From Thermofilum adornatum (GTDB taxonomy: Archaea > Thermoproteota > Thermoprotei > Thermofilales > Thermofilaceae): a stretch of 32,000 bases of DNA. The stretch's first letter is position 1, and each line of letters begins with the position of its first letter. This document shows, piece by piece, positions 8,686 through 29,828 of the stretch. Under the pieces are notes generated by a model. The model did not search any database. It was not told where the DNA came from and saw only the letters and a program-made list of their open reading frames with translations. The stretch spans positions 840,001 through 872,000 of the forward strand of contig NC_022093.1 in the NCBI RefSeq assembly GCF_000446015.1, given 5' to 3'. The position numbers and the translations under genes are program-made.

Positions 8686-8762
8686 TGGCGGGCCCGCCGG
8701 GACTTGAACCCGGGACCAACGGCTCCGCAGGCCGCCACGCTTCCTAGCTACGCCACGGGCCC
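8686..8762 (-). tRNA. tRNA-Arg (anticodon GCG), CCA encoded, no intron
   Basis: The minus strand reads GGGCCCG TG GCGT AGCTAGGAA GCGT G GCGGC CTGCGGA GCCGT TGGTC CCGGG TTCAAGT CCCGG CGGGCCC G CCA. This gives a perfect 7-bp acceptor stem, a canonical T-loop, U33 and G37. Confidence 0.9.
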
Positions 8763-8788
8763 AACGAATCAAAAGAACTTTGCCTGTG

Positions 8789-8804
8789 TTTAAATTTTTT
8801 GGGG
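8789..8804 (-). promoter_or_regulatory. BRE/TATA promoter of tRNA-Arg
   Basis: The minus strand reads CCCCAAAAAATTTAAA, 27-42 nt upstream of tRNA position 1. The same block occurs upstream of the second tRNA at 10983-11000. Confidence 0.5.
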
Positions 8805-8961
8805 TGGGTCTTCCGCGGGGTCAAGTAGCCTTAAAGCTGTTTATTGCATTTTTGTGTTGCTTTTTCGACTGCCCTGTGACATTCTGGGCAGTTTTTCTAA
8901 GAATCTTAGTGTGTACTTTTACCGATATATATATATATGGGTTTGCTGATTATATATTTGT

Positions 8962-10766: not shown

Positions 10767-10958
10767 TGGTGGGGCCGCCGGGATTTGAACCCGGGACCTT
10801 GCCGCACGGGCACAAGCCCGTGAACCAGCGCTCCAGTGCCGTTTACGGGGTACACCCCCAGGCTGGCATCCTTCCAAGCTAGACTACGGCCATCTTTACA
10901 GGGTTTTCGGTACCCCTGCTCCAAAGGCCTTTGCGCCTCTTGATTGCGCAACGGCCCC
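10767..10958 (-). tRNA. intron-rich tRNA, most likely tRNA-Pro (GGG), 192 nt locus giving a 77-nt mature tRNA with encoded CCA
   Basis: The contiguous 3' part ends AGGTC CCGGG TTCAAAT CCCGG CGGCCCC A CCA. The matching 5' acceptor strand GGGGCCG(T) sits at 10951-10958, 65 nt upstream of the D-arm (AGTCTAGCTTGGAAGGATG). Removing three segments restores a canonical cloverleaf: ~10886-10950 (junction ambiguous by 6 nt because GGCCGT is duplicated), 10831-10855 (25 nt after G37), and 10800-10824 (25 nt in the variable region, containing the hairpin CACGGGC-TTGT-GCCCGTG). That cloverleaf is GGGGCCG TA GTCT AGCTTGGAA GGAT G CCAGC CTGGGGC GCTGG AGGTC CCGGG TTCAAAT CCCGG CGGCCCC A CCA. A promoter block sits at the expected distance from 10958. 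Confidence 0.75.
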
Positions 10959-10975: not shown

Positions 10976-12274
10976 TCAAGATATTAAATTTTTTGTGGGG
11001 AGGGGTGGGTTTTCCGCGAGCTCGAGTAGCCTGCGTAGGAGTGGGGTCTTTGGCTGTATGTTGTGTTTTTGTGCCAGCTCTTTGAGTGCTGGTCGTAGCT
11101 CTGGATAGAGTTGGGCGGCTCTAGCTATGTTTGTTCCGTTGAGCTGTACGACGTAATAATTTTTCCCCGTTTTTGGGTCGTACCAAGTGTATGTTTTTGC
11201 TTGGACACCTTGTTGTAGTAATGCTTGTATTAGTCTTTGTGCTTCTTCCAAGCTTTTTAGCACTGTGCGCGCCAATAGTTGCTGTGCTCTTGCGGAGTAA
11301 CTTAGCCAGAAGGTGTGGCCTAGAAGGGTTGCATAGACAGGGTCTCTTGTTGGTTGAAGTTTCTTTAGTATTTGCCACTTTTCGCTGTCTAGCAAGTCTA
11401 GCAATATACCATAGTTTGTCTGGTATGCGACTTGCAGGATTTGCTGTGCTAGGTGTTTCGGCTCGTATTTTTCATCGTTTTGAATCGCAAATCTAAGTAC
11501 TTCAGGATGTTTCTCGCCGTCTCCTAAATACCACGTCAACATGCCTAAGGGATGTTGCTCTGCTATCTTTTGTGCCAGTTTTTTGCCCTCACGCTTGGGC
11601 CATTGTTGATTCCAGCTTTTGCTTGTTATGGTCCAAGCGAAGGTTGGCTCAGTCATGTTTAGGTTTAATGCACTGAGATATATCCGTAGATAGCCGTAGC
11701 GCACGGCTGCCCATGCAAGTGCTTGCCATGGCTGTGTCGTCCCCATCCGGGGTTTGTTCTGGTCGCAACTTTCATCGCTAGCCCTCCATCCTGCCTGTAG
11801 ATAGTAGAGGTCTTGGTCGGACACGTTGAGTATGTCTGGGAACTCGGCGTCGGCGCTTACCCTGTAGATTGGTAGGCTTATTAGCCATGTTTCTCGGAAA
11901 TGTGCACTGACGTACCATTTTTCCCCTTCCGGCGTGATGTGTAGTGTCTTTTTGGCACGTGGTCCCAGCTCGACTTTGACGTTATTGCTTTCTAGGGCTG
12001 TCAATAGTTTCTGTAGCTTTGTTTCTGTTTGCTGGTATGCCTTGTCCAGCAGGTTGACGGCTTTCTCAGCAAAGTCTCGCAATGTGTCTGCCTTGTCTAG
12101 TGGGAGGTCTAATACGTCAATTATAGCCTCTGTCGACACGTAGAAGTACTTTTTCTGCCCGTCTACTAGGCTAGGTAGTTCCCTGTTTGCCAGCTGTGCT
12201 CTGGTGTATAGTTCTGCTAGTAGGTCGGTGGGGCCCGTCCGCCAGCCCTCGGGGCTAGCCGTCCCCATGTCCAT
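10976..12274 (-). CDS. hypothetical cytoplasmic protein, 432 aa, Q/W/L-rich, no family recognised
   Basis: This is a long uninterrupted ORF. A Shine-Dalgarno-like GGGGTGAGAGG ends 3 nt before the ATG at 12274. There is no hydrophobic helix. The composition (many Q, W, A, L; few K/E/I runs) differs from the housekeeping proteins in the window. Confidence 0.75.
   Translation of the reverse strand: MDMGTASPEGWRTGPTDLLAELYTRAQLANRELPSLVDGQKKYFYVSTEAIIDVLDLPLDKADTLRDFAEKAVNLLDKAYQQTETKLQKLLTALESNNVKVELGPRAKKTLHITPEGEKWYVSAHFRETWLISLPIYRVSADAEFPDILNVSDQDLYYLQAGWRASDESCDQNKPRMGTTQPWQALAWAAVRYGYLRIYLSALNLNMTEPTFAWTITSKSWNQQWPKREGKKLAQKIAEQHPLGMLTWYLGDGEKHPEVLRFAIQNDEKYEPKHLAQQILQVAYQTNYGILLDLLDSEKWQILKKLQPTRDPVYATLLGHTFWLSYSARAQQLLARTVLKSLEEAQRLIQALLQQGVQAKTYTWYDPKTGKNYYVVQLNGTNIARAAQLYPELRPALKELAQKHNIQPKTPLLRRLLELAENPPLPTKNLIS
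10981..11000 (-). promoter_or_regulatory. BRE/TATA promoter of the intron-rich tRNA, embedded in the last codons of the upstream CDS
   Basis: The minus strand reads CCCCACAAAAAATTTAATAT, with the TATA part 23-30 nt upstream of 10958. It overlaps codons ...KNLIS-stop of the 432-aa ORF. The core TTAAATTTTTTG is shared with the tRNA-Arg promoter. Confidence 0.5.
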
Positions 12275-13022
12275 AGCCTCTCACCCCGGATCCTTGGTTC
12301 CGGGGGCGCCCTGTTAGGGCGCGGAGGCATGGAGACGGCTAGGTCCCAGGGGCCGGCGGTACAGGCTATCCTTTGGGCATTGGGGGAGGCAGTGAAGAGT
12401 TGTGTATAAGCGTAGAATCCGTGGATTCACATGTGTCGTGGATCCTTTGTTAAGTGATGTATGGTTGTGTGGTTCATGGTCATCAGTGGCTGTTGTTGGC
12501 TGGCCCCTTTTCCCGCTCCCCCTAGCCGCGGCCCAGGCCTTCACATTTCCAGCCCAAGCCGCGACCCTCATCGCCCAAAGACCTGCCTCACAGCTCTGCA
12601 AAGCCCTAGGGCCTCGCACCACCCCCTCTTAGGGGGCGCCACCCGTCTAGGGTGGGGGATGGATTCGGGAAAGAGCGGGAGAAAGGGAACGAAAAAAAGA
12701 CTTGTTTTTCTGGCAGACGGGCACGCAGTCTATAGGCTACTCGGCCCTCTGCGGGTCCCACCCTTCCTCACCCTCCCTCCGTGACCTATGTCTGGGCTCA
12801 TCGTCATCGATCGGTCACGGAGTTCATCATAGTATAATGTAATGGGGTCGTTAAAAAACATTACTATGCTAGCGGAAAATACATAAATGTCGTTTATCTT
12901 TGAAACGTAAAGTCATCAAATTTTTTCGTTGAATTGTATAAACGAAACTTAGTCTGAAAACAGCGAAGCCTTGTAGATGGGAGAACCCTTTATGGGCATG
13001 CCAATAGTTAAGGCTAGTTAAG
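12275..13022 (-). other. ORF-poor, G+C-rich, hairpin-dense spacer (candidate long structured 5' leader or ncRNA; strand inferred)
   Basis: Only short Pro/Ala/Gly/Arg-rich shadow ORFs occur in any frame. Perfect hairpins lie at 12286-12303, 12306-12322, 12622-12636 and 12639-12655. An 11-bp helix at 12528-12562 has three G:U pairs on the minus-strand reading, which are C:A mismatches on the plus strand. Palindromes lie at 12415-12428 and 12603-12612. GGGGGCGCC is repeated at 12302 and 12632. Confidence 0.35.
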
Positions 13023-13175
13023 TCACGTTTCATGGAGAACTAGGTGACCCCTTCTACTGCTTTTTTTCACAGCACAACTGTTAGCATGACGTACGCGATG
13101 TTGAGCTGTGGGGGCTAGTGTACCTGTATATGGGTGTTGCGGAAGTCTTATGGGTGCGCGCCTAGTTTGCTTCAT
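13023..13175 (-). pseudogene. orphan 50-codon ORF behind the second copy of the junction cassette (probable gene remnant or non-coding transcript start)
   Basis: ATG AAG CAA ACT AGG (MKQTR) matches the first five codons of the 185-aa gene in all but one synonymous base. The continuation RAPIRLPQHPYTGTLAPTAQHRVRHANSCAVKKSSRRGHLVLHET-stop has no signal peptide and no similarity to that gene. Confidence 0.3.
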
Positions 13176-13220
13176 TAACCATGGTTAGGAGGGGATCCAT
13201 AGATAATTAACTCGCCTAGC
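13161..13220 (-). repeat. junction cassette copy B (stop context + TATA + ATG + 5 codons)
   Basis: An ungapped hand alignment with 13759-13818 gives 48 of 60 identical positions. The minus strand reads GCTAGGCGAGTTAATTATCTATGGATCCCCTCCTAACCATGGTTAATGAAGCAAACTAGG. Confidence 0.8.
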
Positions 13221-13773
13221 AGCCGCCCCCCACTGTAGCATAGCCACTGGTGAGGGCTGGATTGGCCGAGCCGCTGGCCGATATGCTGAACTCTACGCGT
13301 ACCTTGGCCGGGTAGTCGCCGCTACTGGGCAACGTCCAACTGTAATATTTGCGATACTCGACATCTTTGGTTGGCACATAGACCTGGAAATTAGAGGGGG
13401 CCTCTGAATAAGTGCTACCCGTCACGGTGTCGAGTACTCGCCAGGCGCCGAGGCCGGTGGAGGGGTTGATGTAGAGCACCTTGACCGTGATGGTGTAGTC
13501 CACGTTATCTATATACACTGAGATAGAGCCGTTCGCTTTCCAAGCCGGGGCGCCGGTTGCAGGCGCGACCTTGGCCTCGATGACGGCGCCGTAGCCGCCG
13601 TCGAGCTCGCCGCCGTCGCTTTTGCTGGCGCTAATGGAAAAATACCAGCCATTTTGTGAGGAGTAAACAGGTTGGTATTGTTCTGCTGTAAACGGCCAGG
13701 CCACGACTGCTCGCTGAGCAACCAGAAAGAGGAGTAGGAGTAGGAGGACTGCTAGGAGCCTGGTTTGCTTCAT
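13216..13773 (-). CDS. secreted beta-rich protein, 185 aa, unknown family
   Basis: The start is re-set to M29 of the track ORF (ATG at 13773), which yields a classic signal peptide MKQTRLLAVLLLLLLFLVAQRAVVA. A TATA-like ATAATTATTTAT lies ~27-38 nt upstream. The mature part is rich in G/S/T/A/V/Y, carries the motif FSISAS near both ends, and ends in GGGC. Confidence 0.75.
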   Translation of the reverse strand: MKQTRLLAVLLLLLLFLVAQRAVVAWPFTAEQYQPVYSSQNGWYFSISASKSDGGELDGGYGAVIEAKVAPATGAPAWKANGSISVYIDNVDYTITVKVLYINPSTGLGAWRVLDTVTGSTYSEAPSNFQVYVPTKDVEYRKYYSWTLPSSGDYPAKVRVEFSISASGSANPALTSGYATVGGGC

Positions 13774-13818
13774 CGGTGATGGTTGGGAGCGGGGCCATAA
13801 ATAATTATCTCGCCTAGC
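13759..13818 (-). repeat. junction cassette copy A (stop of 476-aa gene + promoter + start of 185-aa gene)
   Basis: The minus strand reads GCTAGGCGAGATAATTATTTATGGCCCCGCTCCCAACCATCACCGATGAAGCAAACCAGG. See copy B. Confidence 0.8.
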
Positions 13819-15178
13819 CTTCGACCTCCACCTGGATACGGACAATGGAGCCGTCACCGCTCACTACGATGAGGCGGCCCAGGTACTGCTGGTTTCCCTG
13901 GCCATAGTTCCATGGGCCCTGTGAGTAGTCTTGGCTGGGCGCAATCTTAGCGTCGCAGTAGTAGGAGAGGACGCGGGCAGAGGGCGGGTTCCTGACTACC
14001 TCGAACTCCGCGGTGAGTTTGGTGCATGCCCCGCGCTGGGCGCCGACACTTGCATAAACCCCGTCGTATATATTGCCGTCTTTGTTGTATGGGAACATTA
14101 TTACAGCGCCTAGACTAAAGCTGGCCTCTACCCTGACCCTTGCCTTGATCCAGTTTGGTGGCAGGATGATGTTGACGGTGTAGACATAGTATTTGTCGGG
14201 CTCGGCGACTATCGTGTTGCCCTCCACGTAGGCCTTGCCGTAGAGCGGGGTGACATATGTGTCTTTTCCGAGGCTGTAGTAGGGGTGGTAGTAGACCCTG
14301 ATGGTCTTCTCTGCCTCCTCGACGTGTATTGGTGTATGATCCGTGGCGAAGGTGACCCAGGTGAGCACGCCCCTTATATAGTCCTGTGCCTGGAACTCTG
14401 GGCTCCCCCACGCGAACGTGTCGTTGACCTTGATGAATGGGGGCGCCTGGATGGTCACAGTGAAGGGCCTAGCCCTCTGGATCTTGGCTGGCAGCGTGAC
14501 TTCTTGGCCGTCCACGAGGACCTTGACGCCGGGCGCGTTCGTCTCGATGAGGAGGACGTGGGTCTCGACCTTGTATACCGCGACGACGCTTAGGTTGCCC
14601 TGGACGCGGAGCTTCGTCTCCGTCCCTGGCATGGGGCTATCATTAATAATGAATCCGGACGGCGTGAAGCTGTGGGTCTCATTCGACCCGGGGAGCAGTG
14701 CCAGCCTGACTGTTGTGCCACAGGGAACCTCTGCCTCGAAGGGTAGCTTTGCGACGCTACCGTTCACTGCTAGGAGGCCCCAGCTAGCGTTGGACACAAC
14801 AGAAAGCCTGTAGCTGAACCGCTTGTATACCGCTTTGATAGTGGTGTTGCCTTTTATGGTTAGGCTCAGCATTTCACCCTCGAGCCTCGTGCCGTTCACG
14901 AGCCAGTGGTCAAAGACGTGGCACTCTCCAGGCTTGGCTTCTAGCTTGAGCGTGAACGGCCCAGTGGAGCTCCATGTAGCAGTCTCTGTGCCGTTTACTA
15001 TGACTCTTCCACCCTGGCCCGCCTCAATCCTTGCCGTAAACAGCGAGGGCTTTGGCTGTGAAAAGTTCTGTGCTAGCTGTGCCAGGCCCGGCAACTTGGG
15101 CTGGAGCACAAAGAAAAAGAGCGCCGATGCCAGAGCTCCAACGATTACTAGTGTAGCTAGAAGGATTTTCCACTGCAT
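13814..15178 (-). CDS. secreted / membrane-anchored glycoprotein with tandem ~75-aa beta repeats (InlB-B-repeat-like pattern); start at 15178 or 15244
   Basis: The signal-anchor is MQWKILLATLVIVGALASALFFFVL. Two clear repeats both end in AVYK (aa 69-141 and 143-225 of the track ORF), followed by a partial third. There are at least 10 N-x-S/T sequons (NFS, NGT, NGT, NTT, NAS, NGS, NET, NDS, NLS, NDT). Confidence 0.8.
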   Translation of the reverse strand: MQWKILLATLVIVGALASALFFFVLQPKLPGLAQLAQNFSQPKPSLFTARIEAGQGGRVIVNGTETATWSSTGPFTLKLEAKPGECHVFDHWLVNGTRLEGEMLSLTIKGNTTIKAVYKRFSYRLSVVSNASWGLLAVNGSVAKLPFEAEVPCGTTVRLALLPGSNETHSFTPSGFIINDSPMPGTETKLRVQGNLSVVAVYKVETHVLLIETNAPGVKVLVDGQEVTLPAKIQRARPFTVTIQAPPFIKVNDTFAWGSPEFQAQDYIRGVLTWVTFATDHTPIHVEEAEKTIRVYYHPYYSLGKDTYVTPLYGKAYVEGNTIVAEPDKYYVYTVNIILPPNWIKARVRVEASFSLGAVIMFPYNKDGNIYDGVYASVGAQRGACTKLTAEFEVVRNPPSARVLSYYCDAKIAPSQDYSQGPWNYGQGNQQYLGRLIVVSGDGSIVRIQVEVEG

Positions 15179-15648
15179 GTATAAAACGGCTTTCTGGCGA
15201 GCACAAAAAGTTAGCGTTACGAGATGTATCGATACTCCTCTCATAGAATGTGTAGCCTAGGAGAGCTAAGGCTAAGAGAAGGGCAATGGTTATCACAAGG
15301 AACATGTTGGGCTCCTGATTTTGGCTTATGTTTTGTTTTTTGGGCTGTGATGTTTTTGTATCAATTTTTAAGGTTTCTGCGTGATTCTGGGCATTCTTTA
15401 AACTATCATTCAATGTTTTACTACTAAGAAGAAAATAAGATAATATGTTAGTTGCCTTGCGTAGGGTGTATGTCATTGGTTGGACTACCTTGTGGCGAGA
15501 AAAAGATTCTTAGTTTGGTCTTTGTACATTTCCATAATTTTTAGAGCTACGAGTTTTATGGCGTCCTGTGTTTTTCGGGTGGGTTGTGTGGTGGATGTGT
15601 GCTAAAATTATATAAGGTGTGGTTTTAGGTGATTTGGGTTGATGGGTG

Positions 15649-29706: not shown

Positions 29707-29828
29707 GCCGCGTACGCCACGCGCCGTTCGCGGGGCCGCAGACCCCACTACTTGGACGCGCGTGCCGAGCTTAACTTCGGAGTTCTGATGGGATCCGGTG
29801 TTGCCTCGGCACTATGAGCGTACGCGGC
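29707..29828 (-). rRNA. 5S ribosomal RNA (stand-alone gene)
   Basis: The minus strand reads GCCGCGTACGC TCATAGTGCCGAGGCAACACCGGATCCCATCAGAACTCCGAAGTTAAGCTCGGCACGCGCGTCCAAGTAGTGGGG...GCGTACGCGGC. The terminal helix I is perfectly complementary and the conserved CCCAT..GAAC.CCGAAGTTAAGC core is present. Confidence 0.9.

Follow-up and report, generated by a model that had tools for sequence, protein, structure and literature searches.

A conserved structured RNA element, a candidate 5' leader, adjoins a family of probable LAGLIDADG-like genes in Thermofilum

A 32,000 nt stretch of Thermofilum adornatum DNA (contig NC_022093.1, positions 840,001 to 872,000; referred to as the window, from the first letter of which coordinates are counted) contains a gene for a 432 amino acid (aa) protein, preceded on the same, minus, strand by a largely G+C-rich spacer that was found to hold a conserved RNA element of around 600 nt. 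The reading we favour, with moderate confidence, is that this element (12831-12225, minus strand) would be a large structured 5' leader, co-transcribed with the 432-aa gene as part of a compact selfish unit composed of RNA and gene. The region is 99.9% identical to that of Thermofilum adornatum/carboxyditrophus 1505 (CP007493), and is arranged as follows, open reading frames (ORFs) included:

10976-12274, minus strand: the 432-aa gene, forming the downstream border of the spacer
12225-12831, minus strand: the conserved RNA element, ~600 nt, reaching ~50 nt into the 432-aa coding sequence
12314-12622 (minus), 12402-12632 (plus) and 12461-12784 (plus): ORFs within the spacer, none with a Pfam match
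13216-13773/13857, minus strand: a gene for a 185-aa secreted protein, forming the upstream border of the spacer

The original prediction, made from the letters of the window and a list of its ORFs, had taken the whole 940 nt spacer (12275-13215) as a candidate long structured leader or undescribed non-coding RNA. A structured minus-strand RNA belonging to no Rfam family was indeed found, coinciding with 12225-12831, but the A+T-rich sequence at 12832-13215 is common to close relatives only and is not part of the conserved element; furthermore, the probable LAGLIDADG-like character of the gene, the pairing of its 3' end with the leader and the tRNA and clustered regularly interspaced short palindromic repeat (CRISPR) context described below had no place in that prediction. 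Its dismissal of the three spacer ORFs holds, as they are not kept at homologous loci, and the equivalent of the spacer in locus L002 has ORF calls of just 56 and 65 aa. Indel lengths relative to the window leave remainders of 0, 1 and 2 on division by three in 23, 228 and 74 cases respectively, and no frame stays open across the loci; hence the spacer appears to be neither a gene nor a pseudogene, which answers the suggestion that a decayed gene should be looked for. The 12314-12622 ORF corresponds to L001:4656-4961, annotated in GenBank (CP007493) as a 101-aa hypothetical protein and lying wholly within the structured RNA; as it is not kept in relatives, this is probably a spurious gene call.

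When Rfam 15 was run over the whole 32 kb at gathering thresholds, only a 5S rRNA and two tRNAs passed. A sensitive scan of 12100-13400 returned matches at chance level only, the best being to the C/D box model sR14 (17.7 bits, against a gathering threshold of 38), and a search of 12 related loci detected only tRNAs. The absence of signatures of signal recognition particle (SRP) RNA or RNase P RNA, previously noted by eye, therefore extends to the family searches of both the window and these loci.

The 432-aa protein has 66 homologues, all of which are from Thermofilum or hot-spring metagenomes and none of which bears a Pfam name. A metagenome scan gave 79 loci, among 547 confirmed by tblastn; the leader was sought with nhmmer, using either the window leader or profiles of its modules, in the 57 loci having at least 650 nt of upstream sequence. 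It was found directly upstream of the 432-aa homologue in 42 of these, always in one orientation and abutting the start codon, with all three of its modules present in 30 of the 42. Protein identity among leader-bearing loci extends down to ~43%. The leader is 76% identical to those of L002 and L006, the proteins of which are 72% and 66% identical respectively to that of the window, and so its nucleotide sequence is about as well conserved as the gene. In homologues at 30-43% identity the upstream sequence is G+C-rich, yet no inverted repeat of the type described below was found by simple alignment. Scanning genome contigs with the 432-aa protein gave 66 pattern matches and no confirmed relative, whilst a scan of genome and viral contigs with the RNA motif TGAGGGTCGCG...GYGGCTAGGGG gave four chance bacterial matches and none that was viral, Thermofilum apparently being absent from the genome set. 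No earlier description was found in the literature on PaREP2, Thermofilum LAGLIDADG proteins or structured non-coding RNA.

One copy, L023:1719-3421 (aligned with window positions 11360-13053), has a near-identical leader, scoring 459 bits against a self-score of 536 for that of the window, whilst its protein is only 57% identical to the window's and its adjoining tRNA is different (Arg-TCG). This combination suggests that the leaders of paralogous copies may have been exchanged by recombination or gene conversion.

Folded as RNA, the minus strand at 12230-12836 has a predicted energy of -289 kcal/mol (z = -8.3 relative to dinucleotide shuffles), compared with z = -4.5 for the plus strand of the leader. 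Within the helices of the leader modules, G·U pairs outnumber A·C combinations by 99 to 14 and 117 to 6. When each strand was placed on its own predicted consensus, the sense strand again had the lower energy, and in the 3' module the antisense had more A·C than G·U. Both the pair bias and these folds indicate that the functional molecule is likely to be an RNA in the sense of the gene, as had been surmised from a single helix, placed at 12528-12562, with three G:U pairs on the minus strand; this helix, here delimited at about 12522-12572, indeed contains invariant G·U and U·G pairs. Compensatory changes are seen across orthologous and paralogous spacers, and the consensus fold of the whole leader nests its 5' and 3' parts in a single structure. 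The leader was divided into a 5' module (12831-12690), a central module (12689-12500) and a 3' module (12372-12225), the features of which are listed here, together with the promoter, the Shine-Dalgarno (SD) sequence and IR-L and IR-R, the two arms of a long-range inverted repeat (IR):

12851-12858, minus strand: TATA-like box TTTTTTAA, the likely promoter
12777-12831, minus strand: 5' motif UAUGAUGAAC and hairpin 1, with (U)GAUGAAC opening the leader
12730-12776, minus strand: IR-L, directly 5' of segment A, with a central CCGC (12751-12754) followed by the bulge AGA
12710-12724, minus strand: segment A, GUGCCCGUCUGCCAG, complementary to codons 10-14 of the gene (segment B, 12233-12245)
12690-12713, minus strand: A5/U7 hairpin, kept in most loci (CCAGAAAAA/UUUUUCUGG in L014)
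12500-12689, minus strand: central domain, with a pyrimidine strand (12661-12689) paired to a purine one (12504-12522)
12639-12655 and 12622-12636, minus strand: central-domain hairpins, accompanied by a variable sub-domain
12522-12572, minus strand: helix GGUCGCGG...CCGCGGCU, within the central domain
12386-12499, minus strand: A/C-rich linker of variable length, containing the TATA-like CUUAUAC (12406-12411)
12225-12372, minus strand: 3' domain, a three-way junction (alignments A4 and A10)
12350-12364, minus strand: segment A', pairing with coding segment B
12331-12342 with 12257-12268, minus strand: 12-bp helix of AGCCGUNUCCAU with AUGGGNACGGCU, holding the conserved AUG (12266-12268)
12306-12322 and 12284-12305, minus strand: 3'-domain hairpins, the second carrying part of the SD sequence
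12280-12287, minus strand: SD sequence GGGGUGAG, partly in the 3' arm of a hairpin
10995-11036, minus strand: IR-R, encoding the near-invariant C-terminal LRRLLELAENPP, with a central GCGG (11014-11017) and the bulge AAAA (11010-11013)

The four hairpins named in the original prediction are all found where it placed them, and are conserved. The recurrence of GGGGGCGCC followed by a hairpin is likewise real, in that two 15-nt copies match at 87%, although on its own it is weak.

The module nearest to the gene provides the reason for favouring a leader. In an extended version that takes in the AUG and codons 3-14, its consensus contains 41 pairs, 11 of which have changed on both sides, as against ten without the extension. 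Pairing holds in 94.7% of the alignment cells, the figure for slid controls being 24-54%, and none of 500 shuffles reached the observed covariation score. The SD-like sequence pointed out earlier (GGGGTGAG, 12280-12287, minus strand) is near-invariant in 27 sequences. By this comparative analysis the SD, the conserved AUG and approximately the first 14 codons are base paired to the upstream leader, the start codon being buried because it lies within the 12-bp helix; hence both the SD and the start codon are held in conserved helices of what would be the same transcript, the arrangement expected of an occluded ribosome-binding site. The first ATGGAN is missing from several loci, and translation of the 432-aa gene therefore probably begins at the second ATG (12268).

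The central module gives similar figures (alignment A8), with 95.9% of cells paired across 32 consensus pairs, against 45-60% in slid controls; ten pairs have changed on both sides, and at one of them CG and GC alternate in a ratio of 15:10. No pairs are predicted by the consensus fold in the linker that separates it from the 3' module, which is shortened or replaced in L016, L034, L015, L017, L018 and L022.

At the other end, a TATA-like hexamer lies 25-33 nt upstream of (U)GAUGAAC in all of the promoter-proximal subfamilies (alignment A5), from which we infer a transcription start near 12831. The nearest promoter had been sought in the A+T-rich part of the spacer, and the likely promoter does lie there, at 12851-12858, but the TATA-like YTATMY of the linker means that a second candidate is found inside the leader itself. 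The stem of hairpin 1 is 10 bp long (12822-12813 with 12786-12777), and its loop contains GAUGAC or GAUGAG. As the MAFFT/RNAalifold alignment is out of register between subfamilies, the hairpin was defined through a stem search of each sequence, which revealed at least eight different stem sequences across the loci, all of them fully complementary. The U7 run (12692-12698) at the end of this module could possibly be an archaeal terminator or attenuator; it is absent from the most distant loci, L044 and L070. Two known motifs were considered for the 5' module and set aside. A C/D box small RNA is suggested by the C-like AUGAUGA and by GAUGAC/GAUGAG, but there is no CUGA, the sR14 score is far below threshold, and the would-be guides pair with one another in the covarying 10-bp stem. 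A kink-turn reading of the GAUGA motifs was dropped since the L002-type subfamily has GUGUA at this position.

The leader also has the potential to pair with the gene at both of its ends. Segment A and segment B form a 13-nt inverted repeat (I9) that is 92% complementary, and the cognate A:B duplex has a mean energy of -32 kcal/mol, compared with -21±5.7 for shuffles, with compensatory variants across loci and versions of ~25-30 bp in L028, L010 and L030. Segments A and A' are near-identical duplicates, each able to pair with the same B, and hence would compete for it. Over a longer range, IR-L and IR-R pair in 36 loci, in which the arms are 1.4-1.8 kb apart (1.7 kb in the window), the duplex having an energy of -60 kcal/mol against -27.7±6.1 for shuffles. 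The arms were compared by duplex folding and pairwise comparison, owing to register shifts in the MAFFT alignment of the joined arms (A6). They change together: GAGUAGCC is replaced with GAGCAGC in both arms in L044, L051 and L070, which is synonymous in the gene, and a synonymous CUA-to-CUG change in the gene is matched by U-to-C in IR-L. With IR-L complementary to its closing codons, the ORF would be looped out between helices.

The centre of the IR duplex is an invariant 4-bp CCGC/GCGG helix, with a 3-nt purine bulge in one strand and an A-rich bulge of 2-4 nt in the other, both 3' of the central helix. The 3-nt bulge of IR-L is found in nearly all copies examined, whereas the IR-R side is part of a 2x4 internal loop in the subfamily to which the window belongs, but a 3-nt bulge, close to canonical, in L044 and L051. 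A motif known as bulge-helix-bulge (BHB) consists of a 4-bp helix with two 3-nt bulges (PMC4090602), and the centre of the duplex is, as judged from its sequence, relaxed BHB-like.

No Pfam match was found for the 432-aa protein, nor did scans of family libraries detect a RuvC, HNH or transposase domain; PADLOC and NCBIfam gave nothing, and a profile search of PDB sequences returned only a coiled-coil match. In an AlphaFold2 model (pLDDT 88.6) a long helical hairpin is predicted along with a beta domain and a C-terminal domain, as are two alpha-beta-beta-alpha-beta-beta-alpha repeats, a topology that fits LAGLIDADG enzymes. The interface helices end in AGWRASDE and YLGDG; D167, E168, D252 and G253 are invariant. 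The best PDB matches found by Foldseek, using either the whole model or the 146-360 core, were LAGLIDADG enzymes, including the TliVMA intein endonuclease, I-OnuI, I-DmoI and the archaeal intron enzyme I-Tsp061I, although these are weak (E values of 5.7e-4 to 2e-2 and TM-scores of 0.17-0.31). Pfam LAGLIDADG_3 matched one of 44 aligned members (E = 0.008). Hence the protein is considered to be probably LAGLIDADG-like. Residues 1-13 are disordered in the model, which fits with the first codons being constrained by RNA pairing rather than by protein structure. There also appears to be a distant relationship to PaREP2b (PF07775): homologue P0036 exceeded the cut-off of 20.4 bits with a score of 31.6, although the match spans just 55 residues, and among the 44 aligned members, which do not include P0036, one matched (E = 5e-5), whereas the window protein itself did not.

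A mechanism can be proposed in which the leader would keep translation of the LAGLIDADG-like nuclease or maturase off by default, opening only in a particular fold, such as one where B has exchanged A' for A. The IR-L:IR-R helix, if formed in full-length transcripts, might assist this opening, and the 432-aa protein may bind its own leader. The unit as a whole would then be selfish and prone to indels, settling either next to a CRISPR leader or a short way upstream of tRNA promoters.

This last proposal reflects the surroundings of the unit, which are as follows:

10767-10958, minus strand: intron-containing tRNA gene (Pro-UGG by ARAGORN in intron mode on L001), starting ~40 nt downstream of IR-R; the Rfam match covers 10770-10893
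L002:3850-4520, with equivalents in L003-L006, L011, L014, L016, L018, L022, L029, L031, L036, L037 and L056: CRISPR loci of the L002 type
L090:7926-7989: junction of an allele lacking the unit, at which the empty-site DNA reads …GTGGGGATGGGTGGGTTTACCTTGTGGCGAG…

The final codons of the 432-aa gene overlap the TATA box of this tRNA gene. In 28 loci IR-R is followed by a tRNA gene in the same orientation, at a distance of 34-70 nt in 26 of them and of 102 nt in L045 and L065. At least ten different tRNA genes adjoin the unit; confident calls include intron-less His, Leu, Arg, Met and Glu genes, whilst several others contain introns. Elsewhere in the window, at 8778-8858 on the minus strand, the 3' end of a paralogous gene survives as a lone remnant, located just upstream of a tRNA-Arg(GCG) gene (8689-8762) and including an IR-R-like AGGCTACTTGACCCCGCGGAAGACCCACCC and an A-rich TTTAA box. 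In at least 15 loci of the L002 type, the unit instead abuts a ~490 nt A+T-rich CRISPR leader and its divergently transcribed array, the repeat of which is CTTCAATTCTTTCTGAGTTGCATC (the reverse complement ending ATTGAAGG). The RNA of this type has three extra 5' hairpins, totalling ~110 nt, that abut the CRISPR leader. No CRISPR repeat or leader homologous to those of the L002-type loci was found in the window.

Presence and absence of the unit can be compared directly using contig L090, which matches the flanks in the window with 97.7% and 98.2% identity, and lacks approximately 11016-15489. This ~4.5 kb segment contains the 432-aa gene, the leader RNA and the genes for the 185-aa and a 476-aa secreted protein. 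The junction in L090 falls within IR-R, at the bulge (11013-11015). An imperfect direct repeat is present at the ends of the segment, as GGAAAACCCACCC near 11003-11015 and GGTAGTCCAACC at 15478-15489 (minus strand), and the empty allele has a hybrid copy of it; either an insertion or a deletion could account for the polymorphism. The tRNA gene beside the element has an extra insert of ~66 nt near its 5' end (10894-10958; borders GGGGCCG|TTGCGCAATCAAGAGGCGCAAAGGCC...AAAGAT|GGCCGTAG), absent at L090:7928-7960, which may represent a non-canonical tRNA intron whose gain or loss accompanied that of the element. A conventional insertion sequence (IS), or transposon with terminal inverted repeats, was rejected as a description of the unit: IR-L lies ~55-100 nt inside the conserved unit, there is no transposase domain, and the direct repeats are imperfect and enclose 4.5 kb rather than the unit alone.

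Several considerations count against a co-transcribed leader. Where transcription starts, that it continues beyond the U7 run and that the gene shares the transcript are deductions from sequence, whilst the switch between A:B and A':B and the binding of the leader by the protein are put forward as hypotheses. Many of the helices are near-invariant and so carry no information, and the relatedness of the sequences inflates the shuffle tests. The pairing of IR-L with IR-R exhibits no sense-strand G·U bias (13 changes in the expected direction against 52 opposite transitions, many of them in loops), and therefore conservation of this repeat could act at the DNA level. The assignment of the protein to the LAGLIDADG group draws on weak Foldseek scores along with arguments from motifs and topology. 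Finally, as YTATMY is moderately conserved in the linker, the mRNA could start just before the 3' domain, with the upstream 350 nt forming a separate RNA.

This final point leads to an alternative that we think possible, if rather doubtful, in which the upstream part is made up of one or two stand-alone non-coding RNAs and the mRNA arises from an internal promoter near 12406-12411. One such RNA might be a small RNA of ~140 nt, running from 12831 to the U7 run at 12692, in which IR-L would be an antisense seed for the 3' end, and segment A one for codons 10-14, of this mRNA and those of paralogues; another might be ~350 nt long, from 12831 to ~12480, and form a ribonucleoprotein with the 432-aa protein. 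The succession of promoter, hairpin, complementary segments and U7 run does have the look of a self-contained unit, the linker is unstructured and variable, YTATMY precedes segment A' by a similar distance, 37-45 nt, in both of the linker types that were compared, and a nuclease-like gene next to a large structured RNA recalls known RNA-protein systems. However, the U-run is lost in the most distant loci, the pyrimidine strand immediately following it is required to close the central domain, and the global consensus fold does not separate the 5' and 3' parts. The leader is favoured over a separate RNA because the SD, the AUG and codons 3-14 all take part in conserved helices.

We regard it as unlikely that the IR-L:IR-R duplex is instead a relaxed BHB processing stem cut by the archaeal splicing endonuclease, such that a 1.7 kb RNA comprising leader and ORF would be excised and circularised, in the manner of ORF-bearing archaeal rRNA introns or of pre-rRNA, and the 5' hairpin joined to the tRNA leader. 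The invariant CCGC/GCGG helix with its two bulges, near canonical in L044 and L051, would suit such a stem, as would the position of the genomic indel junction exactly at the IR-R bulge and the presence of the intron endonuclease I-Tsp061I amongst the best fold matches; Thermofilum is also known to have many tRNA introns, and permuted tRNAs besides (PMC4090602). Yet the main subfamily, which includes the window, has the 2x4 internal loop rather than a strict BHB, the stop codon falls outside the would-be intron, and the repeat is without the G·U signal seen in the local helices. Neither is there a recognisable host gene with exons, as one flank is a 5' hairpin having a promoter of its own and the other is the promoter or leader of a tRNA gene. 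An extension of this idea, which we consider more speculative still, is that these loci represent a new class of archaeal selfish element, in which a LAGLIDADG-type gene is wrapped in its own ~600 nt RNA with BHB-like ends, excised and circularised by the tRNA splicing machinery, and homes to a conserved site that precedes tRNA genes by ~40 nt, as well as to CRISPR leaders. Were this true, it would amount to a free-living 'intron without a host gene', and might have some connection with the way tRNA introns have spread, so far without explanation, in the Thermoproteales.

It seems very improbable that the repeats act mainly in DNA, serving a mobile element as sites for recombination, attachment or recognition by a nuclease, with RNA folding being incidental. 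The arms of the inverted repeat do change together without strand bias, the 4.5 kb indel is flanked by the imperfect direct repeat with a hybrid copy in the empty allele, and PaREP2b genes have been called putative transposons (PMC3558965); but this would leave unexplained the local helices, each with ~100 G·U pairs and far fewer A·C, the covarying hairpin stems and the helices that include the AUG, and IR-L is not terminal, having both conserved sequence and a promoter outside it. Least credible of all is that the spacer is a decayed protein gene, as the 101-aa GenBank call might suggest, or a missed housekeeping RNA (RNase P RNA, SRP RNA or a group I intron), such as G+C-rich non-coding islands in hyperthermophiles often prove to be, since the former conflicts with the indel lengths, the lack of a frame open across loci and the lack of a Pfam match, and the latter with the chance-level Rfam scan and with an RNA that is multi-copy and tied to one gene family.

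Further features of the window touch on the spacer or lie away from it. The promoter and start of the secreted-protein gene (13773-13822, minus strand; …CTAGGCGAGATAATTATTTATGG…ATGAAGCAAAC, encoding MKQTR…) are duplicated at 13175-13222, leading into a truncated 50-aa MKQTR ORF (13023-13222, minus strand); what had been described as an orphan promoter cassette thus looks like a decayed paralogue of that gene. At 29709-29825 on the minus strand there is a solo 5S rRNA gene (79.4 bits), with no adjoining 16S or 23S match in the window.

Amongst known systems, the ORF-containing BHB introns found in rRNA genes of the Thermoproteales (encoding I-Tsp061I and I-DmoI) share with this unit a G+C-rich structured RNA with an ORF of LAGLIDADG type (a probable one in the window), complementary ends with the succession of bulge, 4-bp helix and bulge, a presence/absence polymorphism and the same archaeal order. 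The window unit differs in having its own promoter and not being inside an rRNA, tRNA or mRNA exon; its BHB is relaxed in most copies, its ORF extends past the 3' arm, and the 432-aa protein has an additional N-terminal coiled-coil and beta domain of 145 residues, along with an additional C-terminal domain. Group I introns with a LAGLIDADG maturase or endonuclease are alike in combining a large RNA with a looped-out protein of LAGLIDADG fold, probable in the case of the window, the start of the ORF being drawn into helices, but the window unit is without exons, and RF00028 gave no match even at E<=10.

In the fold-back inhibition of IS10 and the 5' stem-loop of IS200, transposase mRNA leaders occlude the ribosome-binding site. 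These resemble the window unit in that the SD and AUG of a selfish-element gene are sequestered by upstream sequence; however, the leader described here is ten times larger and multi-domain, and pairs with the 3' end of the ORF as well, whilst the unit is archaeal, its protein is not a recognisable transposase and IR-L lies inside it rather than at its end. OMEGA systems (IscB with HEARO/omega RNA) are also multi-copy and also have an RNA of several hundred nt directly before a nuclease-like gene of ~430 aa, but here there are no RuvC or HNH domains, no HEARO match and no evident guide segment. Eukaryotic mobile elements such as Ty3 and the Dictyostelium TRE5 target tRNA genes, and are similar in lying at a near-fixed short distance upstream of many different ones, whereas the window unit is archaeal, is not a retroelement and has neither an integrase nor a reverse transcriptase.

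To our knowledge, few large structured RNAs have been described in archaea beyond the universal ones. The element reported here is an RNA of ~600 nt, supported by covariation, absent from Rfam 15 and present as dozens of diverged copies. As a leader it would embrace both ends of its own ORF, and if it controls translation or processing it would represent a new way for a hyperthermophile to gate the expression of a nuclease. The fixed spacing of the unit before many tRNA genes, together with the existence of alleles with and without it, makes it a concrete candidate, open to testing, for an archaeal mobile element that lies close to tRNA genes, and one that may bear on the spread of tRNA introns in the Thermoproteales.

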